Notes: a model not told the origin generated them from the letters alone. 64,000 nucleotides of DNA from an uncultured Oscillospiraceae bacterium (GCA_900545655.1 UQZY01000002.1:22543-86542); one strand, 5' to 3'. Positions 38,208 through 53,563 are shown, counted from the stretch's first letter. Numbers and translations: made by a program.

Positions 38208-38320
38208 GACTATGGATAAATATTATTGAGTTGAATAATTTGCGGAACCGGCGTACAATAAAAGTACGATTAATGGGACAACATGTCTCGCAGGGGACTT
38301 AATGCATGGGGGTGCAGCGT

Positions 38321-39319
38321 ATGTCCGGAAATAACAATTCAAAATTAAAATTACTTCGTATTTATGACATCCTTTGTGAAAAGAGTGATGAGGAGCATCC
38401 TCTTTCCGCATCGGATATCAGTGCCGAGCTCAGCTTGTTCGGTATCAATTCGGAACGAAAATCGGTATACAGTGATATTTCTGTGCTTCAGTCATACGGA
38501 TACGACATCATAAAAGTGTCGCAACCGAAAAAAGGCTTTTATGTAGGTGACAGAGATTTTCAGATTGCCGAAGTGCGTCTGCTTATAGACGCTGTTCAGT
38601 CGGCTAAGTTTATAACCGAGCACAAGACCGAGGAGCTTATTTCAAAGATAGAAAAAAGGCTCAGTAGGTATCAGCGTGAAATGCTTTCAAAACAGGTATA
38701 TGTAGACCACAGAAATAAGAACGGCAATGAAAAAATCTATTACACGATAGACTCTCTTTCACAGGCTATAACCGAAAAGAAAAAGGTGCGTATACACTAT
38801 ATCAAGAGGCGCATTGAGACGGGTGAGAGACCGAAAAACGAGGAGCATGTATACATCGTCACGCCGTACGCCCTTATTTGGTCAAACGACTATTACTATC
38901 TTGTGTGTAACAACAATAAATATGACAATCTCATGCATCTTCGCATTGACAAAATCATTTCAACAAAGGTTTTATCCGATGACGGACGCCCGATTTCAGA
39001 GGTAAGCAAGTATAAAAACGCTTTTGACGCAGCCGACTATGCCTCAAAGGTATTCAATATGTATTCGGGAAGCCCGGAAAGGATAAGCCTTATATGTGCA
39101 AATTCACTTTGGGACACGGTACGTGACAGATTCGGTGAGGATGTCATGGTTATTGAACGTACAAATGAAACCTTTACCATAGCGACAACAGCTGCTCTCA
39201 GCGAGGGACTTACGGCATGGATTTTACAGTATGCCGACAGGATGAAGGTGGAATCACCGAGGTCGCTTAAGGATGAGGTTCTTGAAAAGGCAAGAGCTAC
39301 GGTGGCGGCGTATGAATAA
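38321..39319 (+). CDS. WYL-domain transcriptional regulator (HTH-WYL-WCX architecture)
   Basis: N-terminal wHTH KLKLLRIYDILCEKSDEEHPLSASDISAELS. Central WYL-like region YIVTPYALIWSNDYYYLVC. C-terminal extension. GGGGGTG RBS before ATG 38321. Confidence 0.7.
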   Translation: MSGNNNSKLKLLRIYDILCEKSDEEHPLSASDISAELSLFGINSERKSVYSDISVLQSYGYDIIKVSQPKKGFYVGDRDFQIAEVRLLIDAVQSAKFITEHKTEELISKIEKRLSRYQREMLSKQVYVDHRNKNGNEKIYYTIDSLSQAITEKKKVRIHYIKRRIETGERPKNEEHVYIVTPYALIWSNDYYYLVCNNNKYDNLMHLRIDKIISTKVLSDDGRPISEVSKYKNAFDAADYASKVFNMYSGSPERISLICANSLWDTVRDRFGEDVMVIERTNETFTIATTAALSEGLTAWILQYADRMKVESPRSLKDEVLEKARATVAAYE

Positions 39320-39950
39320 GGTCAACTACGGTAAGGAACTTGAAAAAAAGCTGTCGCTTATACAGAGGGAGATTGATTCCCATGGGCTCAGTGTAAGGCC
39401 GACTTTATTGCTTCACAGTTGCTGCGGACCGTGCTCTTCATATGTTCTTGAGTACCTTGAGCCGTATTTCAAGATAACGGTATTTTATTTCAATCCTTGT
39501 ATTTTTCCTCGGAGTGAGTATCTGCACCGTAAAGAAGTTCAAAAAGAGCTGATAAGTCAGATGAATGGGAACGGGTCGGAGATAAGCTTCCTGGATGCTG
39601 ATTATGACCATGATTCATTCCTTGATTTGGTGAAGGGCCATGAAAACGATCCCGAGTGCGGAGAACGCTGCCATATCTGTTACAGACAAAGGCTTTCGCA
39701 GACAGCGGTATATGCAAAGGAAGGCAAATACGATTATTTTACAACTACACTTACGGTGAGTCCTTACAAGGATGCTGAGATTTTAAACAAGCTCGGAGCG
39801 GAGCTTTCACGCGATTATGAAATCCCTTATCTCTTGTCCGATTTCAAGAAAAAAGAGGGTTATAAGAGATCCATAGAGCTTAGTAAAGCATACAACCTTT
39901 ACAGACAGGACTATTGTGGCTGTGAGTTCTCTTTGCGAGACTGCGGATAA
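39312..39950 (+). CDS. queH: epoxyqueuosine reductase QueH (DUF208)
   Basis: LLLHSCCGPCSSYVLEYLEPYFKITVFYFNPCIFP...CGCEFS, the characteristic QueH Cys motifs. ATG overlaps the WYL stop. Confidence 0.85.
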   Translation: MNKVNYGKELEKKLSLIQREIDSHGLSVRPTLLLHSCCGPCSSYVLEYLEPYFKITVFYFNPCIFPRSEYLHRKEVQKELISQMNGNGSEISFLDADYDHDSFLDLVKGHENDPECGERCHICYRQRLSQTAVYAKEGKYDYFTTTLTVSPYKDAEILNKLGAELSRDYEIPYLLSDFKKKEGYKRSIELSKAYNLYRQDYCGCEFSLRDCG

Positions 39951-40010
39951 ATTGACTTATCTGCGCCGTTGAAGTATAATTTACTCCGACTGGAGGGATA
40001 TATTTTCTCT

Positions 40011-41363
40011 ATGATAAAGAAAAGAAACAATGAAGAGTTCAAGAAAATGATCATGTTTTTCATGTCAATTATCATTCTTGTTGCTCTTACCGCTATATTT
40101 GCATTTACATGGTTTGACATAAATAAAACCATGGAAGTAATGCCTTTCGACACCAAGGGTCACTATCTTATTATTTTACTGTATTTCTCTATGCAGTACC
40201 TCTTTTCAAGGATTTACGGTGCATTGCAGATAGGCTACTACAAGATGTCTGACATCCTTTATTCGCAGGCACTTACAACAATTATCGTGGATATCCTTAT
40301 GTATGCGGTAATGAGCCTTGTTGCGCGTGAACTTATTTCGCCGGCGCCTGTTGTGATTATGCTATGTATGCAAGTCGTTGTTATCGCGGTGTGGTCTTTT
40401 ATAAGCACACATCTTTACAAAAAGCTTTATCCGCCGTATAGACTTGTAGTTATTTACAGCAACCATTCCGCAACTAACCTTGTGCGTAAAATGGCAGTAC
40501 GTGACGACCAGTTTCAAATCTGTGAGGCAGTAAGGCTTGAAGAGGGCTTTGACAGAATAAAAGAACGGATTGACTGCTATGACGGTGCTATCATATGCGA
40601 CATACCGGGCTCTGACAGGAATGATCTTCTTAAGTACTGCTTTGATAACAATAAACGTACCTACGTAACTCCTAAGATTTCGGATATACTTATCCGTGCC
40701 GGAGAAAATATTCATCTTTTTGATACACCGTTGCTCCTTTGCAAAAACAGCGGACTTACCTTTGAAGAGAGATTTTTCAAGAGAATTCTCGACATCCTTG
40801 TTGCAACGCTGGGGCTTATTGTGATGAGTCCGTTTATGCTTATAACGGCGCTTGCCATTAAAATTCAGGACGGCGGTCCGGTTTTCTTTAAACAGGACAG
40901 AGTTACAAAGGATGGAAAGGTTTTCAAGATAATCAAATTCCGCAGTATGAAGGTTGATGCCGACGCCGACAGAGGCGGGGAGGCTCATTCCGCCACGGTT
41001 GATGATGACAGAATCACACCGGTAGGAAGGGTAATCCGCGCCTGCAGGATGGACGAGTTCCCGCAGATATTCAATATCCTTAAGGGAGATATGTCAGTTG
41101 TGGGACCGAGACCAGAGTGCGTTGAAAATGTTGAAAGGTACCTACAGGAAGTACCTGAATTTGCATACAGGCACAAGGTTAAGGCCGGTCTTACCGGTTA
41201 TGCACAGATTTACGGCAAGTACAACACAACTGCGTATGATAAGCTCAAGCTGGATTTATTTTACATCGAAAACTATTCCATAAGAACAGATCTTCGACTT
41301 ATTTTTATGACCGTAAAGGTGCTCTTTATGAAGGAGAGTACCGAGGGCTTTGATGAAACCTAA
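40011..41363 (+). CDS. polyprenyl-phosphate sugar phosphotransferase (bacterial sugar transferase, WbaP/CpsE-like)
   Basis: 4-5 N-terminal TM helices plus the C-terminal catalytic domain PVFFKQDRVTKDGKVFKIIKFRSM...DEFPQIFNILKGDMSVVGPRPE. TATAAT at 39976 with GGAGGGA RBS before ATG 40011. Confidence 0.85.
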   Translation: MIKKRNNEEFKKMIMFFMSIIILVALTAIFAFTWFDINKTMEVMPFDTKGHYLIILLYFSMQYLFSRIYGALQIGYYKMSDILYSQALTTIIVDILMYAVMSLVARELISPAPVVIMLCMQVVVIAVWSFISTHLYKKLYPPYRLVVIYSNHSATNLVRKMAVRDDQFQICEAVRLEEGFDRIKERIDCYDGAIICDIPGSDRNDLLKYCFDNNKRTYVTPKISDILIRAGENIHLFDTPLLLCKNSGLTFEERFFKRILDILVATLGLIVMSPFMLITALAIKIQDGGPVFFKQDRVTKDGKVFKIIKFRSMKVDADADRGGEAHSATVDDDRITPVGRVIRACRMDEFPQIFNILKGDMSVVGPRPECVENVERYLQEVPEFAYRHKVKAGLTGYAQIYGKYNTTAYDKLKLDLFYIENYSIRTDLRLIFMTVKVLFMKESTEGFDET

Positions 41364-41739
41364 AAATAAATATGTCAGATAAATACAAATTGCTCTGTCG
41401 GGTAGGCGGGGTAATTTGTTATTTTTTTAACACATGATTGTATTATTTGGGACATTTTTTCTTGTTGATAATTTACAATGAAAATCAAACAAAAGTATTA
41501 AAAACACAGAAAAATAATTATCGGACGCCTTGCAGCGGACTTATTTGTTGACATCGTTGAATTTAATAGTTTAAAGTGAAAGAGGAATTATATCGGATTA
41601 ATCGGAATATTTTTAACTGACAGAACATTTTAACTGCCTGTTTTTGTTTGCCTGCGGGCGACTGTTTTTTTGCGTCATTTTTTTAAAAGAATTTCGGAAA
41701 ATTTGTTAAGAAAGGACAAGATACGAAGGTAAAAGAGAA

Positions 41740-42423
41740 TTGAAAAGCATAAATTTATTTGAAGGTTTAACGGAAAGAGAGATAAAGAAGATATGCTCCG
41801 ATAAGGAGTGCAGAAAAACTGCATATTCAGAGGGAGATATCATCTTTTCAAAGGAAAAATTTGAAAGGGCAATCGGAATAATCCTTGAGGGCAGGGCGTC
41901 TGTTTATACGCCTGACGGGAGTGTCATGATAAGGAGACTTAAAAAGCACGATTGCTTTGGGATTGCTACGCTTTTTAACGATGAGAACAGATATATCTCA
42001 AAAATAGTTGCAATAGATTATTGCAAGGTTTTTTTTATTCCTGAGCGTGTTGTAATTGACTTTGTTGAGGAGTATCCGAGGTTTGCCATTAATTGTATCG
42101 CTCTTCAGAGCAAAAAAACCAGATATCTCAACATTCTTATTGACATATACTCATCCTCGAGTGTGACGATGAAACTTTCAAAATATCTGTTGGAGGGAGA
42201 AGCAAATGCAGGTTTTTTGCAGGAGTTTTCACCGACAAGGCTTTCAAACATACTCAGTATAGGCAGAGCCTCTCTTTACAGGGCTCTTGAAGAGTTTGAA
42301 AATACAGGTGCAATAAAAACGGAAGGAAAGAAAATAATTGTATCTGATATGGAAATTTTAAAAAAATTTGCAAATGGCAGTATGAAAGGAGATAACCATG
42401 AAGAAGAAACTAACAACAGTTAA
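41740..42423 (+). CDS. Crp/Fnr-family transcriptional regulator (cNMP-binding + C-terminal HTH)
   Basis: TTG start. cNMP-like beta-roll GDIIFSKEKFERAIGIILEGRASVY. C-terminal HTH LSNILSIGRASLYRALEEFENTGAI. The 3' end overlaps hydC by 26 nt. Confidence 0.7.
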   Translation: MKSINLFEGLTEREIKKICSDKECRKTAYSEGDIIFSKEKFERAIGIILEGRASVYTPDGSVMIRRLKKHDCFGIATLFNDENRYISKIVAIDYCKVFFIPERVVIDFVEEYPRFAINCIALQSKKTRYLNILIDIYSSSSVTMKLSKYLLEGEANAGFLQEFSPTRLSNILSIGRASLYRALEEFENTGAIKTEGKKIIVSDMEILKKFANGSMKGDNHEEETNNS

Positions 42424-42895
42424 GTTCACGGCCTCGCCGGAAAAAGCAGCTATGCTGGATGAGGCTATTGAGCGATTCAGGGGACAGGGCGGCTGTCTTA
42501 TGCCCATCATGCAGGAAGCACAGGAAATTTACGGATATCTTCCTGTTGAGGTTCAGACGCATATAGCCGAGAAACTTGAAATTTCCGCCGAAGAGGTTTA
42601 CGGAGTAGCTACATTTTATTCCATGTTCAACCTCTCTCCGAAGGGAAAATACTCAATAAGCGTGTGTCTCGGAACAGCGTGCTACGTAAAAGGCTCACAG
42701 GATGTTCTTGACAGACTTTGCAGTGAACTCGGAATAGGTCCGGGAGATTGCACGGAGGACGGAAAATTTTCAATTGAGGCCTGCCGCTGTGTAGGTGCCT
42801 GCGGCCTTGCCCCAGTAATGATGATAAATGATGATGTTTATGGTCGTCTTACTCCGGACATGATTCCGGGTATTCTTGAAAAGTACAAGGACTGA
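42398..42895 (+). CDS. hydC: [FeFe]-hydrogenase gamma subunit / NuoE-like thioredoxin-fold [2Fe-2S] protein (HydC/HndA)
   Basis: CLGTACYVKGSQ...CRCVGACGLAPV NuoE-type Cys4 motif. GGAGA RBS. Confidence 0.85.
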   Translation: MKKKLTTVKFTASPEKAAMLDEAIERFRGQGGCLMPIMQEAQEIYGYLPVEVQTHIAEKLEISAEEVYGVATFYSMFNLSPKGKYSISVCLGTACYVKGSQDVLDRLCSELGIGPGDCTEDGKFSIEACRCVGACGLAPVMMINDDVYGRLTPDMIPGILEKYKD

Positions 42896-42934
42896 TCGAA
42901 GCTCATCTATTGATAAAGGTTTGAAGGAATCGGA

Positions 42935-43294
42935 ATGAAGATTGTAACTATTAAAGAACTGTTGGGCGCAGAGGTTTTATGTAACGAAGATAAGCTGGAT
43001 TGTCAGGTGTACTCCGCTTGCGGCAGCGACATGATGAGCAATGTGCTGGCATATGTGGAGGAGGAAGCAATCCTTCTGACCGGGCTTATCAATTCTCAGG
43101 TTATTAGAACTGCGGAAATGATGGATATGGTTTGCGTGGTATTCGTAAGAGGAAAAATACCGACCCCGGAAATGGTTGAGCTTGCGAGGGACTCCGGAAT
43201 AGTCCTCCTGATTACTGATAAAACCATGTTTGAGACCTGCGGTATTCTGTATGAAAACGGTTTACGAGGAAGGGTGACAACCGAGCATGAGTGA
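42935..43294 (+). CDS. DRTGG-domain protein
   Basis: 119 aa with DMMSNVLAYVEEEAILLTGLINSQVIRTAEMMDMVCVVFVRGKIPTPEMVELARDSGIVLLITDKTMFE, the DRTGG-domain pattern seen in hydrogenase loci. Confidence 0.65.
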   Translation: MKIVTIKELLGAEVLCNEDKLDCQVYSACGSDMMSNVLAYVEEEAILLTGLINSQVIRTAEMMDMVCVVFVRGKIPTPEMVELARDSGIVLLITDKTMFETCGILYENGLRGRVTTEHE

Positions 43295-43712
43295 ACCCTT
43301 AAAGTTTCATTATGACGTTGACGGTGAGGATTTTACCTCGGCGGGTCTGGCGTCGGTTCAGGTGAAAAAAACCTTATCTCAATTGGGACTCAACTCAGAT
43401 GTCATAAGACGTATTTCAATCGCGATGTATGAAGGGGAAATAAATATGGTCATACACGCGGGCGGAGGAGTCGCAGACGTAGATATCTTTGAGGATCATA
43501 TAGCTATAGCGCTTATTGATCACGGTCCCGGTATAAAGGATATAGGTCTTGCCATGCAGGAAGGGTATTCGACAGCGCCTGAAAGCATACGTTCACTGGG
43601 CTTCGGTGCCGGTATGGGTCTTCCAAATATGAAACGTTACACGGATAAAATGGAAATAACTTCTGTTGTGGGTGTAGGTACAACGATAAATATGGAAGTT
43701 TGGTTTAAGTAA
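43287..43712 (+). CDS. GHKL/HATPase_c protein, anti-sigma-factor-like serine kinase (RsbW/SpoIIAB-like)
   Basis: 141 aa with N-box and G-box segments IAMYEGEINMVIHAGGG...HGPGIKD...GFGAGMGLP. Confidence 0.65.
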   Translation: MSEPLKFHYDVDGEDFTSAGLASVQVKKTLSQLGLNSDVIRRISIAMYEGEINMVIHAGGGVADVDIFEDHIAIALIDHGPGIKDIGLAMQEGYSTAPESIRSLGFGAGMGLPNMKRYTDKMEITSVVGVGTTINMEVWFK

Positions 43713-43733
43713 TTTCAGAAAGCAACCTTAAGG

Positions 43734-45005
43734 GTGAGAGTTATGACAACATATCAGCACTCAGTTATTCTTGATACCTCAAAGTGTACGGGTTGTACTA
43801 CCTGTACAAAGCACTGTCCTACGGAGGCAATAAGAATAAAGGATGGGGTGGCATCCATAAACTCCGACAGATGCATTGACTGCGGCGAGTGTATAAGACA
43901 CTGTCCGCATCATGCCAAGAAAGCGAATTACAGCAAGTTTTCTACGGGGGATAAGGGTAAGTGGAAGATTGCTCTTCCCGCTCCGACTCTTTATGCACAG
44001 TTTGACGGTCTTGATGATACAAACTATGTATTGTCCGGCCTTATTGATATCGGCTTCGACAGTGTGTTTGAGGTTGCAAAGGCAGCTGAGCTGGTATCTG
44101 CATATACGAGAAATTACCTCAAATTCGACTGGATAAAAAGGCCTGCGATAAGCTCTGCTTGTCCTGTTATCATCAGGCTTATTCAGTTTAGATTTCCGTC
44201 TCTTACAGACAATATCGTTACGCTTTTACCGCCGGTTGAGATTGCGGCTATGATGGCAAGAGAAGATGCCCTTTCAAAGCATCCGGAATTAAAGGCGGAG
44301 GATATCAAGGTTTACTTTATTTCTCCGTGCCCGGCAAAGGTCAGCTATGTAAACAACGGCTTCGGTAAACACAAAAGCTATGTTGATGAGGTTCTCTCAA
44401 TAAGTGATATCTACTTTCAGCTTCTCTCGGTCATGAAAAGAAAGAATGAGCCGAGGCAGCTTTCGGAATCCGGAAGGATAGGAGTGAGTTGGGCACAGTC
44501 GGGCGGAGAATCATCTGCTCTTTTCAGCGAGCACTATCTTGCCGCCGACGGAATTGAAAATGTTATAAGAGTTCTTGATCAAATTGAAAACAGTTCTATT
44601 CCTCAGCTTGACTTTATTGAACTCAACGCATGCCCGGGAGGCTGTGTAGGAGGAGTCATGTGCGTAGAAAATCCGTTTATAGCAAAGGCAAGATTGCTTT
44701 CTCTCAGAAATTATCTGCCGGTATCACAGACCTTTCCCAAAACGGAAAAGGGCGACAACTTTATACCGCGCGACTTTTTCTTTGACGAGTTTCCGAAGTA
44801 CAGCCCCATCAGTAAGCTCAGCGACAATATAGGTGAATCGATGAGAATGATGGCAGCCATTCAGGCTCTGAAGGAAAGCTTACCCGGAATTGATTGCGGA
44901 GCGTGCGGCGCACCCACCTGCAGAGCTTTTGCCGAGGATGTGGTAAAGGGAGAAGCAAGGATAAAGAACTGTAAGATAAGAACGCCGGAGGATGCAGAAA
45001 AATGA
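43734..45005 (+). CDS. sensory-type [FeFe]-hydrogenase homolog (HydS/HfsB-like, Group C-like): 2x[4Fe-4S] ferredoxin + partially degenerate H-cluster domain + C-terminal Cys4 motif
   Basis: CTGCTTCTKHCP and CIDCGECIRHCP ferredoxin motifs. H-domain motifs L1-like SSACPVII (one Cys), L2-like ISPCPAKV, L3 ELNACPGGCVGGVMC. C-terminal DCGACGAPTCRAF...NC. Confidence 0.7.
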   Translation: MRVMTTYQHSVILDTSKCTGCTTCTKHCPTEAIRIKDGVASINSDRCIDCGECIRHCPHHAKKANYSKFSTGDKGKWKIALPAPTLYAQFDGLDDTNYVLSGLIDIGFDSVFEVAKAAELVSAYTRNYLKFDWIKRPAISSACPVIIRLIQFRFPSLTDNIVTLLPPVEIAAMMAREDALSKHPELKAEDIKVYFISPCPAKVSYVNNGFGKHKSYVDEVLSISDIYFQLLSVMKRKNEPRQLSESGRIGVSWAQSGGESSALFSEHYLAADGIENVIRVLDQIENSSIPQLDFIELNACPGGCVGGVMCVENPFIAKARLLSLRNYLPVSQTFPKTEKGDNFIPRDFFFDEFPKYSPISKLSDNIGESMRMMAAIQALKESLPGIDCGACGAPTCRAFAEDVVKGEARIKNCKIRTPEDAEK

Positions 45006-45328
45006 CTGTTTCGGAACTTGTGAAAAAACTGAATCTCAAAGCGGTTACATTGCCAGGGCCAGAAAGGGTTATAGGCGGAGTGTATATCGGCGACCTGTTG
45101 AGCTTTGTCATGGGAAAAGCCCGTGAGGGCGATGTATGGATAACCATAATGTCGAATATCAACGTTATGGCTGTCGCTACACTTGCAAATACTTCGTGTA
45201 TTATTCTTGCGGAGGGTGTCACTCTTGAGGAGAAAATTGTTGATACCGCAAAGGAAAAGTGTATCAATATTCTTTCTTCGGATAAGACGGCATATGAGCT
45301 TGCGGTTGAAATTTCAAGAGCGGTATGA
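45002..45328 (+). CDS. DRTGG-domain protein (second copy)
   Basis: 108 aa with GDLLSFVMGKAREGDVWITIMSNINVMAVATLANTSCIILAEG...AKEKCINILSSDKTAYE. Overlaps the upstream stop. Confidence 0.65.
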   Translation: MTVSELVKKLNLKAVTLPGPERVIGGVYIGDLLSFVMGKAREGDVWITIMSNINVMAVATLANTSCIILAEGVTLEEKIVDTAKEKCINILSSDKTAYELAVEISRAV

Positions 45329-45331
45329 AGC

Positions 45332-46081
45332 ATGAGATATTATTATGATTTTCATATTCACTCGTGCCTGTCTCCTTGTGCTGACAATGATATGACGCCG
45401 AACAATATCTCCGGAATGCTTAAGCTTGCCGGTATAAAGGTTGCGGCACTGACGGACCACAACTCCCTTAAAAACTGTCCGGCTTTTTTTGAGGCGGCAG
45501 AGCGTAACGGGATTATACCGATAGCGGGTGTTGAGATAACCACCTTGGAGGATATCCACGTTGTATGTCTTTTCAGAAGGCTTTCGGCGGCTATGGAATT
45601 TGATGTGGAACTTTACAGACACAGGGTGCTTATAAAGAATAAAACCGAGGTGTTCGGAGATCAGCTTATTTTGGACGGAAAAGACGCGACTGTTTCTACG
45701 GAACCGTATTTTCTGACAAACGCGACTGATTTGTCCGTGGACGATATTCCGCTACTCGTAAAAAATTTTAACGGTATTTCATACCCCGCTCATGTTGACA
45801 GAGAGGCAAACGGTATCATTGCAATTCTCGGTGATTTTCCCGAAAAGCCGGCATTTGACTGTGTGGAATTTCGCAGTTTTGAAAATAAGGAGAAATACAT
45901 AAAGGCATACGATAAGCTTGTCGGGAAAAAGGTGTTGTACGGATCGGATTCACATTTTTTATGCGGAATCGAAGACGCGGCAAATGCCTTTGAATTTGAA
46001 GCCGAGGAAAGGGATCCTCTTGTTGTTACAGACAAAATTTTTGATTTTATCGCGGGAGATTGTGAGGGAACGGTTTTATGA
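45332..46081 (+). CDS. PHP-domain phosphoesterase (predicted protein phosphatase of the cassette)
   Basis: N-terminal YYDFHIHSCLSPCAD and LTDHNS metal-binding His motifs of the PHP fold. Confidence 0.7.
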   Translation: MRYYYDFHIHSCLSPCADNDMTPNNISGMLKLAGIKVAALTDHNSLKNCPAFFEAAERNGIIPIAGVEITTLEDIHVVCLFRRLSAAMEFDVELYRHRVLIKNKTEVFGDQLILDGKDATVSTEPYFLTNATDLSVDDIPLLVKNFNGISYPAHVDREANGIIAILGDFPEKPAFDCVEFRSFENKEKYIKAYDKLVGKKVLYGSDSHFLCGIEDAANAFEFEAEERDPLVVTDKIFDFIAGDCEGTVL

Positions 46082-46635
46082 AGGAACTGTCACTTAACAT
46101 CTTGGATGTTGCAAAAAATTCCGTGACTGCGGGTGCGACCCTTATTGAAATAACAATTTCCGAGACAGACGAGACGATGGAAATCATGATAAGGGATAAC
46201 GGCTGCGGGATGGATGAGGAAACCATAAACAGCGTGACAAATCCGTTTTATACGACAAGAACAACACGTTCCGTGGGACTTGGGGTTCCTCTTTTTAAAA
46301 TGGAAGCGGAAATGACGGGCGGATGGCTTAAGATAACTTCATATTCGAAAGAAGAGTATCCAGACAGACACGGGACTGCGGTAACAGCCTTCTTTAATAA
46401 AAAACACATAGACTTTATAGGACTCGGAGATATGGTCTCCACCATAACCACTCTCGTGGGTGGTTCTCCGGATGTTGATTTCATATTTTTACACACTTAT
46501 GGGGAGAAGTCGGTGTCCGTTGATACGCGTGAAATACGCGTAGCTGTCGGTGAGGATATCTCGCTTGACAATATTGAAATACTTTTATGGATTGAAAATT
46601 CATTGAAAGAAGAATACGGAAATTTGTACTATTAA
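46078..46635 (+). CDS. GHKL/HATPase_c protein (second serine-kinase-like ATPase)
   Basis: LNILDVAKNSVTAGAT...IRDNGCGMDEETINSVTNPFYTTR...GLGVPL (N, G1, G2 boxes). Confidence 0.65.
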   Translation: MKELSLNILDVAKNSVTAGATLIEITISETDETMEIMIRDNGCGMDEETINSVTNPFYTTRTTRSVGLGVPLFKMEAEMTGGWLKITSYSKEEYPDRHGTAVTAFFNKKHIDFIGLGDMVSTITTLVGGSPDVDFIFLHTYGEKSVSVDTREIRVAVGEDISLDNIEILLWIENSLKEEYGNLYY

Positions 46636-46646
46636 CAAAGAAAGGG

Positions 46647-47027
46647 TTGATTAAGATGAAATCTCTTGCAGAGCTTGAGGAGATCCGCAACAAAATGAAG
46701 CCGTCGGTAGTGCTTCGTGAGGATTCGGGAAAAACGCGTGTGGTTGTAGGTATGGCTACATGCGGAATAGCAGCCGGAGCACGACCTGTTTTGCAATCAT
46801 TTGTTGAAAATGTTGCAAATGAAGGACTCGGTGACAAGGTGCAGGTTCTCCAGACAGGGTGTATAGGAATATGTCGTTACGAGCCTGTTGCCGAGGTTTA
46901 CGAGGCGGGAAAAGAGAAGGTTACGTATGTAAAGCTTGATGCCGAAAAAGCAAAACGTATTGTTGAGGAACATCTCAAGGGCGGTAAAGTTGTTGCAGAG
47001 TATACCATTGCAAATTATGAAAAATAA
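46647..47027 (+). CDS. thioredoxin-like [2Fe-2S] ferredoxin (HndB-like small subunit)
   Basis: MATCGIAAGARPV...TGCIGICRYEPV. Confidence 0.7.
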   Translation: MIKMKSLAELEEIRNKMKPSVVLREDSGKTRVVVGMATCGIAAGARPVLQSFVENVANEGLGDKVQVLQTGCIGICRYEPVAEVYEAGKEKVTYVKLDAEKAKRIVEEHLKGGKVVAEYTIANYEK

Positions 47028-47033
47028 AGAGAG

Positions 47034-48842
47034 GTGTTAAGCATGATTCGTTCACAAGTACTTATTTGTGGTGGTACAGGCTGTACCTCTTACGGAAGCA
47101 AGCTTGTCAGGGAGGCGTTTGAAAGGGAAATTTCCGCAAAAGGTCTCTTGGATGAAGTGAAAATCGTCGGGACCGGCTGTTTCGGTCTTTGCGGTTACGG
47201 ACCGGTAGTCATTGTTTATCCCGACGGAACTTTTTACGGTAAGCTGACGCCTGAGGATGTGCCCGAGATAGTTGAAGAGCATCTTCTCAAAGGTCGTGTG
47301 GTAACAAGACTTGAATACAAGGATGTCAACATGACTCCGGATATCGACCTTTCACAGGTTTCTTTGGCTGATACGACTTTTTATAAGACGCAAAAGAGAA
47401 TTGCTTTGCGCAACTGCGGTGTCATAGACCCAGAGCAGATTGACGAGTATATCGCAATGGACGGATATCGTGCTCTCGGTAAATGTCTTACGGAAATGAC
47501 TCCTCAGCAGGTTATAGATGTTGTCCTTGATTCCGGTCTTTGCGGACGCGGCGGTGCGGGATTCCCGACAGGACGCAAATGGTCGTTTGCAGCTGCAAAT
47601 GACGCCGACCAAAAGTATGTATGCTGTAATGCCGATGAGGGCGACCCGGGAGCATTCATGGACCGTTCGGTGCTTGAGGGAGATCCGCATGCATTGCTTG
47701 AGGCAATGACTATCGCGGGATACGCAATAGGCGCAAACCAGGGTTACATATACGTGCGTGCAGAGTATCCTATAGCAGTAAAGCGTCTTAAGATTGCTAT
47801 CGCTCAGTCAAGAGAATACGGACTTCTCGGAAAGAATATTTTTGATTCCGGATTTGATTTTGATATTGATATACGTCTTGGCGCCGGTGCGTTTGTATGC
47901 GGTGAGGAAACGGCTCTCATGACCTCTATCGAGGGTAAGAGGGGAGAACCTCGCCCGCGTCCTCCGTTCCCGGCAGTTAAGGGCCTTTTCGCAAAGCCCA
48001 CTATTTTGAACAACGTTGAGACATACGCCAACATCCCGCAGATTATTCTTAACGGTGCCGATTGGTTTAAGTCAATGGGTACCGAAAAGTCCAAGGGAAC
48101 GAAGGTGTTCGCACTCGGCGGAAAGATAAACAACACGGGACTTGTAGAGGTTCCCATGGGTACGACTCTTCGACATATCGTCGAGGATATAGGCGGCGGT
48201 ATACCGGACGGTAAAAAGTTTAAGGCTGCACAGACCGGAGGTCCTTCCGGCGGATGTATCCCTGCAGAGCATTTTGATATTGAAATTGACTATGACAATC
48301 TTCTTGCCATCGGCTCAATGATGGGCTCCGGCGGGCTTATCGTAATGGATGAGGATACCTGTATGGTTGATATCGCCAAATTCTTCCTTGAGTTCACCGT
48401 TGACGAGTCATGTGGAAAGTGCACACCGTGTCGTATCGGTACGCGCAGGCTTCTTGAAATTCTCAACAAGATAACCTCCGGCGAGGGAACAATGGAAGAC
48501 CTCGACGAGCTTGAGGAGCTTGCCAATCTTATCAAGGATACGGCCCTTTGCGGTCTCGGTCAGACGGCTCCGAATCCTGTCCTTTCAACACTTCACTTTT
48601 TCAGGGACGAATACATCGCCCATATCGTAGATAAGAAGTGTCCTGCAGGCGTCTGCAAAAACCTTCTTACCTTCAAAATTATCGAAGACAAGTGTAAGGG
48701 ATGCACAAAGTGCGCGAGAAACTGTCCTGTTTCCGCAATCAGCGGTACGGTCAAGCAACCGCATGTTATTGATACATTCAAGTGTATCAAGTGCGGTGCT
48801 TGTATTGAAAACTGTGCTTTTGACGCAATAATCAAGGAATAA
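47034..48842 (+). CDS. hydB: [FeFe]-hydrogenase beta subunit / NuoF-like NAD(P)H-binding flavoprotein (HydB/HndC)
   Basis: N-terminal [2Fe-2S] block VLICGGTGCTSYGS. FMN/NADH site GRGGAGFPTGRKW. SLBB domain. 4Fe-4S CGKCTPCRIG. C-terminal 2x ferredoxin motifs CKGCTKCARNCP and CIKCGACIENC. Confidence 0.9.
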   Translation: MLSMIRSQVLICGGTGCTSYGSKLVREAFEREISAKGLLDEVKIVGTGCFGLCGYGPVVIVYPDGTFYGKLTPEDVPEIVEEHLLKGRVVTRLEYKDVNMTPDIDLSQVSLADTTFYKTQKRIALRNCGVIDPEQIDEYIAMDGYRALGKCLTEMTPQQVIDVVLDSGLCGRGGAGFPTGRKWSFAAANDADQKYVCCNADEGDPGAFMDRSVLEGDPHALLEAMTIAGYAIGANQGYIYVRAEYPIAVKRLKIAIAQSREYGLLGKNIFDSGFDFDIDIRLGAGAFVCGEETALMTSIEGKRGEPRPRPPFPAVKGLFAKPTILNNVETYANIPQIILNGADWFKSMGTEKSKGTKVFALGGKINNTGLVEVPMGTTLRHIVEDIGGGIPDGKKFKAAQTGGPSGGCIPAEHFDIEIDYDNLLAIGSMMGSGGLIVMDEDTCMVDIAKFFLEFTVDESCGKCTPCRIGTRRLLEILNKITSGEGTMEDLDELEELANLIKDTALCGLGQTAPNPVLSTLHFFRDEYIAHIVDKKCPAGVCKNLLTFKIIEDKCKGCTKCARNCPVSAISGTVKQPHVIDTFKCIKCGACIENCAFDAIIKE

Positions 48843-48857
48843 GGAGAGAGTATAGAT

Positions 48858-50597
48858 ATGAATATGGTAAATGTTACAATCAACGGTATGAAAATAAGCG
48901 TACCACAGGGCTCTACTATACTCGAGGCTGCAAGGGAACTCGGAATTGAGATACCGACTCTTTGCTTTATGAGAAAGAAAAACGAGATTGGTGCATGCCG
49001 CATTTGTGTTGTAGAGGTCAAAGGCGCAAAAACTCTCGTTACGGCATGTGTTATGCCTGTTTCTGAGGGAATGGATATACTTACAAACTCGGACAGAGTT
49101 ATAAAAGCAAGAAAGAAAATCATAGAATTGATTCTTTCAAATCACAACTGTTCCTGCCTTTCATGTGACAGATCCGAGAACTGCGAGCTTCAGACACTTG
49201 CACGTAATTACGGAGTGGACATGAACAAATTTGAAGGACAGAAGACGGAATCGGATTTTGATGAAAGCTCTCCTTCAATAGTGAGGGATAACAGCAAGTG
49301 TATACTTTGCCGTCGCTGCGTTGCCGCTTGTGAATCACAGACGGGAGTTATCGGTGCAAACCACAGAGGCTTTGATACCGTAATAGGCTGTGCTTTTGAG
49401 TCAAAACTTGCAGACGTTGCATGCGTGAACTGCGGACAATGTATAGAAGCCTGTCCTACGGGTGCTCTTTCCGAAAAAGATCAGATAGATGACGTTATAG
49501 CCGCTATAAACAATCCGGAAAAGGTTGTTGTCGTACAGACAGCTCCCGCAATACGTGTTGCGATAGCCGAGGCATTCGGAAATCCTGTCGGAACAATGGC
49601 AAAGGGAAAAATGGTTGCAGCGCTCAGAAGACTTGGTTTTGATAAGGTTTTTGATACTGATTTTACGGCCGACCTTACAATTATGGAGGAGGCTACGGAA
49701 TTCCTTGACAGATTCAAAAACGGCGGAACGCTTCCCCTTATCACAAGCTGCTCGCCGGGATGGATAAAATTCTGTGAGACATACTATCCGGAGTTTATCC
49801 CGAATCTTTCCACATGTAAATCTCCGCAGCAGATGTTCGGTGCAACGCTCAAGACCTGGTGGGCAGAAAAGAACGGAATCGACCCGAGGCGTATAGTTTC
49901 CGTTTCAATCATGCCGTGTACCGCAAAGAAATTTGAAATCGGTAGAGAAAACGAAGCTGCTGCCGGAATACCGGATGTTGACTATGTTCTTACTACAAGG
50001 GAGCTTGCAAAGATGATAAAACGTGCAGGTATTAACTTCAATGCTCTTCCCGATGAGGAATACGACAGCCCTCTCGGAGAGGCAACAGGTGCCGGAGTTA
50101 TCTTTGCCGCAACGGGCGGTGTTATGGAGGCAGCTCTTCGAACGGCTGTGGATGTCATAACGGGCAAGGACAACGAGACATATGACTTTACAGAGGTGCG
50201 CGGAACCGACGGAATCAAGGAGGCAACATATAAGGTTGGGGATATTGAACTCAGCGTTGCGGTTGCAAGCGGACTTGACAATGCAAGAAAGGTTCTCGAG
50301 GACGTAAAGAGCGGTAAAAAGAACTACCAGTTTATAGAAATCATGTGTTGCCCTGAGGGCTGTGTAAACGGCGGAGGACAGCCGATTCATCCGAATTGGG
50401 AGCGTCAGACTATGGATATTCCGGCTATTCGTTCAAAATCAATCTATGAGGAGGATAGGCATCTTCCGAAGCGTAAGTCACATAAGAACGAAGAGGTTAA
50501 GCTACTTTATGACGAATATTTCGGAAGTCCCAACAGTCATAAGGCTCATGAAATTCTCCATACAACATACATTGACAGATTGGGTACACTCAAGTAA
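48858..50597 (+). CDS. hydA: [FeFe]-hydrogenase catalytic subunit HydA (N-terminal 2Fe-2S + 4Fe-4S domains, H-cluster domain)
   Basis: H-cluster motifs L1 TSCSPGW (see finding), L2 MPCTAKKFE, L3 EIMCCPEGCVNGGGQP. N-terminal CRICVVEV 2Fe-2S block and 2x CxxCxxCxxxCP. Confidence 0.9.
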   Translation: MNMVNVTINGMKISVPQGSTILEAARELGIEIPTLCFMRKKNEIGACRICVVEVKGAKTLVTACVMPVSEGMDILTNSDRVIKARKKIIELILSNHNCSCLSCDRSENCELQTLARNYGVDMNKFEGQKTESDFDESSPSIVRDNSKCILCRRCVAACESQTGVIGANHRGFDTVIGCAFESKLADVACVNCGQCIEACPTGALSEKDQIDDVIAAINNPEKVVVVQTAPAIRVAIAEAFGNPVGTMAKGKMVAALRRLGFDKVFDTDFTADLTIMEEATEFLDRFKNGGTLPLITSCSPGWIKFCETYYPEFIPNLSTCKSPQQMFGATLKTWWAEKNGIDPRRIVSVSIMPCTAKKFEIGRENEAAAGIPDVDYVLTTRELAKMIKRAGINFNALPDEEYDSPLGEATGAGVIFAATGGVMEAALRTAVDVITGKDNETYDFTEVRGTDGIKEATYKVGDIELSVAVASGLDNARKVLEDVKSGKKNYQFIEIMCCPEGCVNGGGQPIHPNWERQTMDIPAIRSKSIYEEDRHLPKRKSHKNEEVKLLYDEYFGSPNSHKAHEILHTTYIDRLGTLK

Positions 50598-50714
50598 AAT
50601 GGATGTGAACAATAATTGAACATAAAACGCTGACCTGACACCGAAAACCTTATGAAGCCGAAAAACGGTTTTGTGAGCTTTGAGGTGAAAGACACAGAAA
50701 ATATCCTATGAAAA

Positions 50715-50766
50715 TAATCAGGTTGCGTAAAGCAGTTGCTTTTTGCAGCCTGATTTCCTGTTTTTA
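50715..50766 (+). terminator. terminator after hydA
   Basis: Long imperfect hairpin aatcaggttgcgtaaagcag-ttgctttttgcagcctgatt followed by TCCTGTTTTT. Confidence 0.55.
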
Positions 50767-50815
50767 TAAAATATTTATCTGACGGTTTTTTTTATGGCGG
50801 AAAGGAGACAAACAG

Positions 50816-51061
50816 ATGGAAAAAAGAGTTGCCGTAATTGGTATAATTGTCGAAAACGCTGATTCTGCTCCGCAGGTTAATGAAATACTGCATGGGTATT
50901 CGGAGTTTATCGTAGGTCGCATGGGTATACCGTATACGGCAAAGGAATTGCATATCATAAGTATTGCCGTGGATGCTCCGATGGATATCATAAATGCAAT
51001 ATCCGGAAAAGTAGGAAGAATACCCGGTGTTTCCGCAAAAGCCGTTTGTTCGGCAAAGTAA
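50816..51061 (+). CDS. TM1266-family putative iron-only hydrogenase system regulator (TIGR03959-like)
   Basis: 81 aa with MEKRVAVIGIIVENADSAPQVNEILHGYSEFIVGRMGIPY...HIISIAVDAP, an ACT/NikR-C-like small regulator typical of this family. Confidence 0.65.
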   Translation: MEKRVAVIGIIVENADSAPQVNEILHGYSEFIVGRMGIPYTAKELHIISIAVDAPMDIINAISGKVGRIPGVSAKAVCSAK

Positions 51062-51106
51062 AGCTTTTAGTTTTTGAATAAATTTTCAGTGGGGTGTGAA
51101 TTAAAA

Positions 51107-52162
51107 ATGAAAAGAATATTATCAATTGTTATGGCTTTTGTCCTTGTACTCACGCTTTTCTCAGCCTGTGGTAAAAAGGGTACTCCCGAACAGCCGGGCA
51201 AAGAGCCTGAAAAGCCGGAGTCATCGGTTCCGAAGGCAACCGGCGTTACGGTAAAACTTGCAACGCTTCAGGGACCAACCGGTATGGGTATGGCATATTT
51301 ACTGGATGATTCCGACAACGGTAAAACTCTTAACAAGTATGAGTATACCGTAGCATCCTCTCCGGATGAGATTACAGGAAAGCTTATTTCGGGTAACTTT
51401 GACATTGCCGCTGTTCCTACAAATGCCGCTGCGACGCTCTATAACAAGTCGAACGGAAAGGTGAAGCTTCTTGCTCTTAACACGGGCTGTGTTCTTTATA
51501 TACTGGAAAAGGGAAACACAATAAAGAGTATTTCAGACCTTAAGGGAAAAACGGTATATGTGAGCGGACAGGGTGCAACACCGGAGTATATCCTTAACTA
51601 TGTGCTGAGTGAGAACGGTCTTAAGCCGGGAACAGACGTAAAAATTGACTTTACGTATTCCGCTCATAATGATCTTGTTGCGTATGCTGCGAGCGGAAAG
51701 GCAGATGTTCTTCTTCTTCCGGAGCCTGCGGCAACGGCACTTCTTGCACAGAATAAGGATATGCGCGTAGCACTCAGCATAAGCGATGTATGGGCAGATA
51801 CAGTAAAGGGTACAAGCTATGAGGGCACTCAGATTGCCATGGGATGCGTGGCTGTAAACACCGAGTTTGCTGAAGCTCATCCGGATGCCGTTGAGGCGTT
51901 CCTCTACGAATACGAGAAGTCAATAAAGGATATAACAAACACCGAGAATCTTGACAAAAGCGCCGAGACAATCGCAAAAGTCGGTATTGTTGCCAAAGCG
52001 GGCATTGCAAAGAGTGCACTTCCGCGCTGCAATATCATCTTTGCCAAGGGCGAAGAAATGAAGAAAATGACAGAGGGCTTCTATAAGGTTCTCTTTGATG
52101 CTCAGCCAAATTCGGTCGGAGGTAAATTGCCGGATGAAAACTTCTATTACAAAGCAAAATAG
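51107..52162 (+). CDS. ABC transporter substrate-binding lipoprotein (NMT1/TauA/SsuA-like)
   Basis: Lipobox LTLFSAC. Periplasmic-binding fold. Confidence 0.75.
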   Translation: MKRILSIVMAFVLVLTLFSACGKKGTPEQPGKEPEKPESSVPKATGVTVKLATLQGPTGMGMAYLLDDSDNGKTLNKYEYTVASSPDEITGKLISGNFDIAAVPTNAAATLYNKSNGKVKLLALNTGCVLYILEKGNTIKSISDLKGKTVYVSGQGATPEYILNYVLSENGLKPGTDVKIDFTYSAHNDLVAYAASGKADVLLLPEPAATALLAQNKDMRVALSISDVWADTVKGTSYEGTQIAMGCVAVNTEFAEAHPDAVEAFLYEYEKSIKDITNTENLDKSAETIAKVGIVAKAGIAKSALPRCNIIFAKGEEMKKMTEGFYKVLFDAQPNSVGGKLPDENFYYKAK

Positions 52163-52973
52163 ATTTGGCGGCAAAGTAAAATATTTAATTGTCGCAGTTA
52201 TATGGCTTACGATTTGGGAAGTTTCCGCGGTGCTTGCAAATGACCCGATTTTGTTTGTGCCACCACACAGAGGTTTTGTGACATTTTTTAAGCTTGCCTC
52301 GACTTGGGAGTTTTGGAAGACTGTACTTACTTCCGTGCTGCGCGTGCTTTCAGGCTTTGTCCTCGGATATATCAGCACTGCATTGCTTAGCTTTTGCGCG
52401 TACAGAAGCTCCTTCATAAAAGCTTTTATAACTCCGATAATTAATATAATCAAGGCAACTCCCGTTGCATCCTTCATAATCGTCATGCTTATGTGGGCGG
52501 GAAAAAACTTTGTGCCCATTTTCATATGCGTACTTATGGTTACCCCCATTGTGTGGAGCAATGTACTGGAGGGTCTTATGAGTGTGGATAAGAATCTTCT
52601 GGAAATGGCGGATGTTTACAAGATGACAACGAGTGAAAAGATAAAGCACATATATATACCGAGCCTTATTCCGTACAATGCGGCTGCCGTGGATTCGGGC
52701 CTCGGCTTGTGCTGGAAGGCAGGCGTTTCCGCAGAGGTAATCTGTCGGACAATTCCGTCTATAGGAAACAGTATATGGGAGACAAAGTTCTATGTTATAA
52801 CAGATGAGCTGTTTGCATGGACAACTATGGTAGTGTTACTAAGTCTTATCTTTGACTGGATTTTAAGTCATGCTATGAATAAGGTTTTCCGTAACTATGC
52901 TGTACAGAAAGATTTTATGCGACTGACGGAAGATCATGATGAATTAAAATCCGGGATAGAGGTGGATGTGTGA
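52134..52973 (+). CDS. ABC transporter permease (TauC/SsuC-like)
   Basis: Six TM helices with an EAA-like loop. ATG 52134 overlaps the SBP 3' end. Confidence 0.75.
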   Translation: MKTSITKQNRFGGKVKYLIVAVIWLTIWEVSAVLANDPILFVPPHRGFVTFFKLASTWEFWKTVLTSVLRVLSGFVLGYISTALLSFCAYRSSFIKAFITPIINIIKATPVASFIIVMLMWAGKNFVPIFICVLMVTPIVWSNVLEGLMSVDKNLLEMADVYKMTTSEKIKHIYIPSLIPYNAAAVDSGLGLCWKAGVSAEVICRTIPSIGNSIWETKFYVITDELFAWTTMVVLLSLIFDWILSHAMNKVFRNYAVQKDFMRLTEDHDELKSGIEVDV

Positions 52974-53563
52974 TCCATTTTAAAAATGTATCATTCTCAT
53001 ATAAGGATAACAAAAAAAAGGAAAAAATGATGACGCAGGTTTTTGATAACCTGAGTCTTGAAATTCCTGACAACGGAATAACGGCGGTCGTTGCGCCGTC
53101 CGGAGTCGGAAAGACAACGCTTTTGAAGCTTATTGCCGGGCTTCTTTCACCGGATTCCGGAAAGATAAAAACTACGGCCGGTGAAGGGATGCGCGTTGCC
53201 GACGTTTTTCAGGAGCAGAGACTGCTTCCGTGGTATTCGGCATTTGAAAATGTAAAGGTCGTAACAAAACGTCCGGACGGCGAGATAAAGGACTTTCTTT
53301 CAAAACTGGGAATAACGGACGATTTGCAGAAAAAGCGGCCGTCCGAGCTGTCCGGAGGACAGCGGCAGCGCGTGTGTCTTTCAAGGGCATTGTTATTTGA
53401 TTCGGATATACTTCTTCTTGATGAGCCCTTCACCGGACTGGATGATAAAAACCGTGAAATCGTTCAGCAGGAAATAAAAGAATATGCGAGAAAAAAGCCG
53501 GTGGTACTGGTCTCTCATGTTGAAGAGGACCTTGAAATTGCCGACAAGAAAATAGAATTGTAA
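52970..53563 (+). CDS. ABC transporter ATP-binding protein (short, 197 aa)
   Basis: Walker A APSGVGKTTLL, signature LSGGQRQRVCLSRAL, Walker B LLLDEPFTGLD. Confidence 0.8.
   Translation: MIHFKNVSFSYKDNKKKEKMMTQVFDNLSLEIPDNGITAVVAPSGVGKTTLLKLIAGLLSPDSGKIKTTAGEGMRVADVFQEQRLLPWYSAFENVKVVTKRPDGEIKDFLSKLGITDDLQKKRPSELSGGQRQRVCLSRALLFDSDILLLDEPFTGLDDKNREIVQQEIKEYARKKPVVLVSHVEEDLEIADKKIEL

Follow-up and report, generated by a model that had tools for sequence, protein, structure and literature searches.

Bifurcating [FeFe]-hydrogenases set H2 output in the gut, in the rumen and in biofuel fermenters, and how the bacteria concerned sense H2 is an acknowledged open problem. Among the putative sensory [FeFe]-hydrogenases, Group D (M2e) has one characterised member, TamHydS of Thermoanaerobacter mathranii (Land 2020). 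This protein binds the [2Fe] cofactor and catalyses H+/H2 interconversion near the thermodynamic potential. It features a low turnover, an H2 affinity of ~0.1 mM, CO tolerance and an H2-induced structural change (Land 2020; 2026 TamHydS study), and its properties have been explicitly compared to those of the [NiFe] regulatory hydrogenase (Land 2020). In Caldicellulosiruptor, Thermoanaerobacter and C. thermocellum, M2e genes are found near genes for trimeric bifurcating hydrogenases, often with a gene for a histidine/serine kinase in between. The operon native to T. tengcongensis reads hydC-tte0891-hydD-hydB-hydA, and the hydrogenase purified from this organism is composed of HydA-D only. The 2026 TamHydS study closes by calling for the identification of interaction partners. 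Here we describe an M2e gene nested within a hydrogenase operon of an uncultured Oscillospiraceae bacterium, in a stretch of 64,000 nt (GCA_900545655.1 UQZY01000002.1:22543-86542), hereafter called the window, in which all positions are counted. New here is the observation of sensor fusions in other lineages, which between them involve all three of the closest neighbours; one of these, DRT2, takes the position held by PAS domains in other sensory hydrogenases. The window locus itself is one of thousands, and its layout is already known in other bacteria; the comparative work nominates DRT1, the SpoIIAB-like ATPase HAT1 and DRT2 as testable partners of the sensor.

Eleven co-oriented, tightly packed genes are located on the plus strand between 41740 and 50597, in the order Crp/Fnr, hydC, DRT1, HAT1, M2e sensor, DRT2, PHP, HAT2, hydD, hydB and hydA. 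Gene identities were obtained by domain and family profile searches (Pfam, NCBIfam):

41740-42423, plus strand: crp/fnr, 227 residues; cNMP_binding (9e-14) and HTH_Crp_2 domains; 26-nt overlap with hydC.
42398-42895, plus strand: hydC, NuoE-like [2Fe-2S] subunit of the bifurcating hydrogenase; PF01257 (2Fe-2S_thioredx), 184 bits; TIGR01958, 144.1 bits against a cut-off of 142.4.
42935-43294, plus strand: DRT1, divergent single-domain DRTGG protein of 119 residues; PF07085, 27 bits.
43287-43712, plus strand: HAT1, SpoIIAB/RsbW-like GHKL ATPase of 141 residues; HATPase_c_2; putative serine kinase or partner-binding switch.
43743-45005, plus strand: Group D (M2e) putative sensory [FeFe]-hydrogenase, 420 residues; two Fer4 domains, Fe_hyd_lg_C and PF04060; the open reading frame opens at GTG 43734.
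45002-45328, plus strand: DRT2, DRTGG protein of 108 residues; PF07085, 33 bits; 4-nt overlap with the sensor gene.
45332-46081, plus strand: PHP-domain metal-dependent phosphoesterase, 249 residues.
46078-46635, plus strand: HAT2, small GHKL ATPase (HATPase_c), 185 residues.
46656-47027, plus strand: hydD, hndB-like thioredoxin-like [2Fe-2S] ferredoxin of 123 residues; partial match to PF01257; the reading frame opens at TTG 46647.
47043-48842, plus strand: hydB, NuoF-like FMN/NADH subunit, 599 residues; Complex1_51K (1e-45), NADH_4Fe-4S, SLBB and Fer4; nuoF_fam, 513 bits; the reading frame opens at GTG 47034.
48858-50597, plus strand: hydA, catalytic [FeFe]-hydrogenase subunit of M3 architecture; NF040763, 891.2 bits against a cut-off of 765.

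Gene calls in locus L001 and conservation indicate that the likely true starts of the sensor, hydD and hydB genes are the ATG codons at 43743, 46656 and 47043, a few codons downstream of the start of the longest reading frame. Intergenic gaps within the operon range from -26 to +39 nt, and three stop/start overlaps (ATGA/ATGAGTGA) are present. A first-pass annotation of the window had recognised a trimeric [FeFe]-hydrogenase operon in which hydC is parted from hydD, hydB and hydA by a signalling cassette of genes in the same orientation, among them one for a sensory hydrogenase, with a Crp/Fnr gene overlapping hydC. All of these genes were found on the plus strand, the overlap measures 26 nt, and the operon is of the HydABC type, similar to that of A. 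woodii. The cassette, described as seven genes in 4.1 kb, is made of six genes in 3.7 kb (42935-46635); the larger figure holds if the hndB-like gene is counted (42935-47027). Ordinary metabolic enzymes, whose presence would have spoken against a signalling cassette, were not found among the inserted genes by domain searches. We are highly confident that the locus is a bifurcating hydrogenase operon with a nested accessory module around a Group D sensor-type protein.

According to Land 2020, Group D proteins have lost the proton-relay Cys299, and Met353 is replaced by Ser or Thr. The window sensor carries both changes. Its L1 motif is SSACP, in which the relay Cys is replaced by Ala, and its L2 motif is SPCPAK, in which Met353 is replaced by Ser; the L3 motif is ELNACPGGCVGG, and the three motifs align to DdH as SSACP / SPCPAK / ELNACPGGCV. 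The equivalents of both M353 and M497 are substituted. Two Fer4 domains (residues 11-61) precede the Fe_hyd_lg_C domain (91 bits), which is followed by PF04060 (residues 383-414). The translation of this C-terminal domain reads CGACGAPTC-x16-C, corresponding to a Cx2Cx4Cx16C pattern, and the chain ends 10 residues past the last Cys. The four cysteines of the H-cluster (C140, C196, C297, C301) and the four of the C-terminal cluster (C385, C388, C393, C410) are invariant in 39 diverse members of the family. Over 309 residues the sensor is ~44% identical to TamHydS (E 7e-78), a value obtained with a TamHydS coding sequence from the 2026 supplement that was damaged by optical character recognition; the Group A HydA of the window shares 23% identity with TamHydS. 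On the basis of motifs and identity to TamHydS, the sensor is hence assigned to Group D (M2e), as a putative sensory [FeFe]-hydrogenase. A search of the PDB by sequence found no Group C or Group D structure.

The first-pass annotation had called the protein a HydS-like sensory hydrogenase. The sensory type holds in spirit; the assignment to the Group C HydS/HfsB proteins does not, because Group C carries a PAS domain and no Pfam or NCBIfam match to PAS was found in the sensor or in any gene of the locus. Group C proteins, such as HydS of T. maritima and R. albus and HfsB of the Thermoanaerobacterium hfsABCD cluster, share with the window sensor a low-activity H-domain devoid of the proton-relay Cys, an N-terminal 2x[4Fe-4S] region and a C-terminal four-Cys cluster domain, and are often encoded beside a Group A hydrogenase. 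A regulatory role of hfsB is supported by genetic evidence, as its deletion changes adhE expression in T. saccharolyticum. In Group C, however, a PAS domain sits after the C-terminal cluster (Land 2020), and the genes are linked to Ser/Thr kinase/phosphatase genes. In contrast, the PAS-less window sensor is surrounded by DRTGG proteins, a SpoIIAB-like ATPase, a PHP protein and a GHL-like ATPase.

Fusions of the sensor were surveyed in the best 150 representatives of its family at 50% identity. DRT2 is fused to the sensor in seven of them, the DRTGG domain being placed at the C terminus, directly after the four-Cys domain. A DRT1-type domain is found at the N terminus of two representatives (P0155 and P0187), and HAT1 is N-terminal in one (the P0147/P0284 cluster). 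Neither PHP nor HAT2 is fused to the sensor in any of the 150. The fusions are reproducible across sources and are not gene-calling accidents. For instance, one cluster of M2e::DRT2 proteins has 80 members of constant length, the longest of their contigs reaching 515 kb; DRT1::M2e is present in an isolate genome; and HAT1::M2e is represented by 5-6 full-length proteins, with contigs of up to 347 kb. In fusion loci, the corresponding neighbour is missing as a separate gene. These fusions in other lineages make DRT1, HAT1 and DRT2 likely physical partners of the sensor; and since DRT2 is fused where Group C carries PAS, the DRTGG domain is the leading candidate for an output element in Group D sensors. 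A search of the accessible literature for DRTGG domains together with hydrogenases, or for partner switching together with sensory hydrogenases, returned nothing relevant.

DRT1 and DRT2 are paralogous (hhalign 97.4%), and neither carries the canonical GDR/TGG motif. HAT1 matches the SpoIIAB model TIGR01925 (1.6e-16) below its equivalog cut-off, and its best PDB matches are SpoIIAB (8e-10) and RsbW. The residues E49xxxN53xxxH57, D78xGxG82 and G105-G111 (GFGAGMG) are invariant in 76 orthologues, and the N, G1 and G2 boxes are intact. Similarly to the SpoIIAB-SpoIIAA-SpoIIE and RsbW-RsbV-RsbU systems, the locus encodes a single-domain GHKL protein with the catalytic signature, from a gene that overlaps the gene of a small alpha/beta-domain protein, here DRT1. 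Those systems, in contrast, include STAS and PP2C proteins and a sigma factor; no sigma factor was found in the operon, and the phosphoesterase of the locus is a PHP protein with a nuclease-like fold. SiaABC of P. aeruginosa, a variant without STAS, is a threonine-phosphorylation pathway. Its RsbW-like kinase acts on a non-STAS substrate.

On these grounds, a mode of action can be proposed. DRT1, HAT1, M2e and DRT2 would assemble as one sensor complex, and H2 at the low-turnover H-cluster would alter its redox or conformational state. The DRTGG domain would serve as the output element in place of PAS, and HAT1 might turn the signal into an ATP-dependent step, either the phosphorylation of a serine in a partner or the sequestration or exchange of partners, resembling a partner switch that operates without STAS or PP2C proteins. 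The net effect would be a feedback of H2 partial pressure on the co-encoded hydrogenase, exerted directly on the enzyme or via lineage-specific transcription factors (Crp/Fnr in the window), with an NADH-responsive Rex probably acting at the promoter in many relatives. The logic is that of the HoxBC-HoxJ-HoxA system of Ralstonia/Cupriavidus, where a low-activity, inhibitor-tolerant [NiFe]-hydrogenase serves as the H2 sensor over hydrogenase genes; however, metal centre and proteins are unrelated, and neither a PAS histidine kinase such as HoxJ nor a response regulator such as HoxA is encoded in the window locus. H2-responsive feedback regulation of the co-encoded hydrogenase is, by a small margin of probability, the function that we favour for the module. 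The specific DRTGG/HAT1 route is a more tentative proposal, for which we would claim somewhat less than an even chance. The first-pass annotation had held that the signal transduction of such sensors has not been worked out, and the literature to April 2026 agrees.

Several points weigh against this proposal. Pfam and NCBIfam searches found neither a STAS antagonist nor a PP2C (PPM) phosphatase, the partners by which SpoIIAB-type kinases are defined, in the locus. The module has no conserved output domain (DNA-binding, receiver or sigma factor). The modelled fold of PHP argues against a protein phosphatase. The conserved Ser of DRT1 and DRT2 aligns to a similar GAMS stretch in AF_1212, the single solved DRTGG protein compared, in a weak alignment (E ~0.1); this weakens its candidacy as a specific phospho-site, and the residue cannot be taken as specific evidence of a phospho-acceptor. 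In C. thermocellum, the M2e gene Cthe_0335 did not vary with growth phase in the way that the remaining hydrogenase genes did. Lastly, the C-terminal cluster of TamHydS is not reduced by H2 (2026 TamHydS study). This makes a redox relay across the domain next to DRT2 unlikely, so that coupling, if there is any, would have to be conformational.

This last result also fits a different reading, in which the module senses the redox or energy state of the cell (the ferredoxin/NADH ratio or adenine nucleotides) rather than H2, the H-domain acting as a redox-poised Fe-S protein while the DRTGG and GHKL proteins read nucleotides. Enzymes regulated by nucleotides, CBS-pyrophosphatases and Pta among them, can contain DRTGG domains, and the PDB matches 3l2b and 2ioj are consistent with this. 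Two ATP-binding proteins are encoded in the locus, and Rex-type NADH control appears at the same promoters. However, the DRT proteins of the window do not feature the canonical GDR/TGG motif, as mentioned above, all H-cluster cysteines are invariant across the family, and TamHydS, besides binding the cofactor, reacts with H2 at sub-millimolar affinity. We regard redox or nucleotide sensing as improbable, H2 sensing being preferred.

The nested position of the sensor gene raises the question of its relationship to the enzyme. HydA matches A. woodii HydA1 (7q4v) along its full length (701 bits) and is encoded together with a NuoF-like flavin subunit (HydB), in which the 2Fe-2S domain is N-terminal and the 2x[4Fe-4S] domain is C-terminal, and a NuoE-like [2Fe-2S] subunit (HydC); the architectures of HydB and HydC are also those of the A. 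woodii complex. The Cys motif of HydD and its flanks are invariant among relatives. By homology, the enzyme is inferred to be of the electron-bifurcating HydABC type (Group A3, 'A6' in NCBIfam), with NADH- plus ferredoxin-coupled activity. The L1 motif of HydA (residues ~295-301) is TSCSPGW, not the textbook TSCCPxW; since the solved A. woodii HydA1 has the same motif, this is a subgroup trait and not a defect. The likeness to A. woodii HydABC covers the enzyme part alone, and the window locus is set apart by the nested sensor cassette.

M2e could itself be a working catalytic or electron-entry module, for instance an alternative H2-producing or H2-consuming head docking on HydBCD, with the small proteins acting as assembly or stability factors. 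The N-terminal 2x[4Fe-4S] relay of the sensor is preserved, its gene is placed among those of the structural subunits, the cassette is accompanied by a HydD-like ferredoxin, and TamHydS, as mentioned, interconverts H+ and H2 near the thermodynamic potential. In contrast, the proton-transfer Cys and M353/M497 are replaced, the reported rates are low, and the purified T. tengcongensis enzyme is composed of HydA-D only. Moreover, the sensor is fused in some lineages to SpoIIAB-like ATPase and DRTGG domains, and the cassette is also found without HydB/HydA. A catalytic role is accordingly rated as very improbable.

PHP and HAT2 belong to the module, although they are not to be read as a simple phosphatase/kinase pair, and the common labels 'phosphatase' for PHP and 'histidine kinase' for HAT2 are doubtful. 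HAT2 is the orthologue of T. tengcongensis TTE0891 and C. thermocellum Cthe_0339, both annotated as histidine kinases in databases. It matches the ATP-binding domain only (residues 6-107), with an intact ATP site, and Pfam and NCBIfam searches revealed neither a DHp/HisKA domain in HAT2 nor a receiver gene in the locus. Structure models were built from database homologues. In the HAT2 model (predicted local distance difference test score, pLDDT, 89.9), the whole-chain fold is closer to MutL/GyrB than to histidine-kinase domains, and motif I, DxxxNSxxAGA, resembles the ExxxNSxDAGA of MutL. A two-component sensor histidine kinase was accordingly rejected, and the term 'kinase genes' of the first-pass annotation claims too much where HAT2 is concerned. 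In fold, the PHP model is similar to the nuclease branch of EndoQ and TrpH and not to protein phosphatases, and comparison of the modelled fold does not support a CpsB/YwqE-type protein (tyrosine) phosphatase. With a MutL/GyrB-like HAT2 that has no His box and a PHP whose modelled fold belongs to the nuclease/nucleotide-phosphodiesterase branch, a kinase/phosphatase pair is unsupported.

HAT2 and HydD may form the link to the enzyme, as HAT2 always precedes hydD and the HydD-like ferredoxin stays with the cassette even where HydABC is missing. An apparent HAT2::HydD fusion, P0348 (303 residues, an ENA singleton), is 66% identical to the window HydD over residues 182-302. It was set aside as unreliable, being one sequence on one contig in which read-through or an assembly artefact is possible. 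Internal stop codons noted in PHP or HAT2 of five relatives were likewise discarded as artefacts of extending reading frames past the true stops.

The PHP fold invites the view that the output acts on nucleic acids, with PHP (EndoQ/RNase AM-like) and HAT2 processing or degrading hyd mRNA, or acting on DNA, under control of the sensor, so that regulation would be post-transcriptional. However, fold similarity does not fix the substrate, and no nucleic-acid-binding domain was detected. PHP is missing in locus L089, which keeps HAT2; in the Thermoanaerobacter-type order hydC parts the PHP and HAT2 genes, and neither is fused to the sensor. We hold a nucleic-acid output as such to be most unlikely. 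A broader formulation is that DRT1-HAT1-M2e-DRT2, PHP and HAT2 make up an undescribed H2 signalling pathway, in which DRTGG would replace PAS and a SpoIIAB-like ATPase would dispense with STAS and PP2C partners. The final step would then be carried out by the EndoQ/RNase AM-like PHP and the GHL ATPase, either on nucleic acid (e.g., hyd mRNA) or on HydD/HydABC directly, and not by a classical transcription factor. This pathway, taken as a whole, is a speculative suggestion that we consider unlikely, if less so than any of the rival readings.

How often the cassette parts hydC from hydB was asked of the 80 closest species-level genomes, 65 loci of which were long enough to judge. These 65 informative loci are found in Oscillospirales, Acutalibacteraceae or Ruminococcaceae metagenome-assembled genomes of gut, faecal or rumen origin, with sensors 55-70% identical to that of the window. 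The order hydC-DRT1-HAT1-M2e-DRT2-PHP-HAT2-hydD-hydB-hydA is conserved in 62 of them; in the remaining three hydC is placed between PHP and HAT2. Median intergenic distances in the relatives range from -13 to +30 nt. The recurrence of a ten-gene order in 62 species-level genomes is far beyond chance. The split operon is not a rarity; the window order is the norm of the clade, and the presence of M2e beside a bifurcating hydrogenase had already been published. The window locus is accordingly ordinary, a further example of a locus type already on record, and its hydC-first order is a local norm, not an insertion event specific to this genome.

Known Group D clusters are found in Thermoanaerobacter (TamHydS, Tmath_0862, and Tmath_0865-0869), Caldanaerobacter, Caldicellulosiruptor (Csac_1857/Athe_1292) and C. 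thermocellum (Cthe_0335, and Cthe_0338-0342). As in the window, the sensor is PAS-less and features Cx2Cx4Cx16C and SSACP/SPCPAK motifs, a GHKL gene directly precedes hydD, and the enzyme is HydABCD. In these clusters, however, hydC follows the sensor gene and directly precedes the GHKL gene, whereas in the window and in the 62 related gut and rumen genomes it is located upstream of the whole cassette. By analogy with loci L088, L067, L072 and L081, the two genes that, judging from locus tags, separate the sensor and hydC in Thermoanaerobacter-type clusters would correspond to DRT2 and PHP. The regulator genes also differ: an AraC-family gene has been reported beside TamHydS, whereas a Crp/Fnr gene overlaps hydC in the window.

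The sensor family is large, as it includes at least 8000 proteins at E <= 1e-20 and 384 clusters at 50% identity with E <= 1e-30. When genome stretches were retrieved with one C-terminal motif, 593 of the first 600 proved to encode a relative. The module is kept down to a sensor identity of 33-40%, while the position of hydC shifts. For instance, the distant locus L088 has the Thermoanaerobacter-type order PHP-hydC-HAT2 and retains the DRTGG, HATPase and PHP neighbours, L085 exhibits a third order with hydC after hydD, and L089, devoid of DRT1 and PHP, keeps HAT2. HAT2 and hydD are adjacent in every locus in which both genes were found. In L087 (1-9323), a Group D sensor with DRTGG and HATPase genes directly follows NuoE/NuoF-like genes, a gene for a molybdopterin (formate-dehydrogenase-like) subunit and GltD-like genes, and the module may therefore serve complexes other than hydrogenases. 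In the isolate genome GCA_020558355.1 (L091, 5941-9955), the cassette is rearranged to HAT1, a gene for 109 residues, PHP, HAT2, a DRT1::M2e fusion and a HydD-like gene; a V-type ATPase operon immediately precedes it, and glycogen genes follow. Because HydB and HydA are not adjacent here, module and ferredoxin can stand alone. A cassette found without adjacent HydB/HydA in one genome and beside formate-dehydrogenase-like NuoEF in another is as expected of an autonomous regulator.

The same data bear on the possibility that the cassette is a genomic hitch-hiker that regulates other targets (e.g., adhE, as proposed for hfsB) and has no functional tie to the flanking hydrogenase. The cassette is located away from HydABC in some genomes (L084, L091), hfsB deletion alters adhE expression, and an acetate kinase gene is found nearby in the window. 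However, in 62 of the 65 relatives the cassette is nested between subunit genes and its genes overlap or are closely spaced, linkage to HydABC holds across three gene orders, and HAT2 and hydD stay together. Hitch-hiking appears highly unlikely, and a regulator of the co-encoded hydrogenase is preferred. An origin of the GHKL and PHP pair from a defence system or a mobile element was rejected, in view of the lack of meaningful PADLOC matches, the even GC content and the syntenic housekeeping flanks.

The first-pass annotation had inferred co-transcription from the gene overlaps and from the lack of internal terminators. A strong terminator hairpin at 41385-41419 ends the gene preceding the unit. 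Terminator-like hits inside the operon number 12, versus 8.8 +/- 3.1 in shuffled sequences; they are short stems of 5-6 bp in coding sequence, and none is convincing. The following signals were found around the operon:

50716-50770, plus strand: intrinsic terminator, a long hairpin followed by a T-run (folding free energy -29.6 kcal/mol, z -6.4), which ends the operon.
41548-41577, plus strand: promoter-like site TTGACA-18-TAAAGT, a 10/12 match to the consensus only, located ~160 nt upstream of crp and past the preceding terminator.
41416-41433, no strand assigned: Rex-like operator candidate TTGTTATTTTTTTAACAC, matching 12/14 consensus positions and overlapping the T-tail of the preceding terminator; weak evidence for the window taken alone.

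A single transcript is plausible, as it fits the packing, the three overlaps and the flanking terminators, and we propose that the locus is transcribed as one unit, or as two at the most. Promoter-like sites are also present before hydD (46603-46632) and hydA (48805-48832), although such matches are no commoner than in shuffled sequences. The gap between HAT2 and hydD is 226-270 nt long in some relatives. This gap, the promoter-like sites and the deviating growth-phase behaviour of Cthe_0335 mentioned above keep a single transcript from being taken as proven. A weak terminator-like hairpin with a T-run was noted in the leader at 41648-41661, between the promoter-like site at 41548-41577 and the start of crp. 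Neither a riboswitch nor another known RNA element was detected in the leader or in the intergenic regions (no Rfam match at E <= 1).

In the relatives L002-L081, Rex-like boxes (TTGTTAANNNNTTAACAA; at least 12/14 positions) occur upstream of hydC in 12 of 61 regions, versus 0.58 +/- 0.70 in shuffled sequences. The operons of relatives start 100-350 nt after upstream genes that vary, and no conserved regulator was found upstream of hydC. The Crp/Fnr protein of the window does not contain the Fnr-type Cys cluster. In L090, the closest genome, its gene likewise lies immediately before hydC (86% identity), and it is present in an identical metagenome contig; it is absent from this position in the other 60-odd relatives. 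The Crp/Fnr gene is thus restricted to the genus-level lineage of the window. Upstream synteny is shared between the window (38306-41363) and L090 (1776-6446), and includes genes for a WYL/WCX regulator, QueH and a sugar transferase; in L090, the sugar transferase gene and crp are separated by an inserted gene for an iron-containing alcohol dehydrogenase.

Of the promoter-like sequences in the region, TTGACA-17-TAAAAT at 50572-50600 matches best (11/12); it is located at the hydA stop and upstream of the terminator at 50716-50770, and no Rfam match was found at either site. Downstream of this terminator, the plus-strand region 50816-53563 begins with a gene for a TM1266-family putative regulator of [FeFe]-hydrogenase systems (81 residues; TIGR03959, 108 bits). 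To reach it, a transcript starting at 50572-50600 would have to read through the hydA terminator, an arrangement that could represent an attenuator-like leader. The TM1266-like gene is followed by the genes of an ABC transporter, encoding a substrate-binding protein of the NMT1/phosphonate-binding type, a permease and an ATPase, and the same trio is found after hydA in L090.

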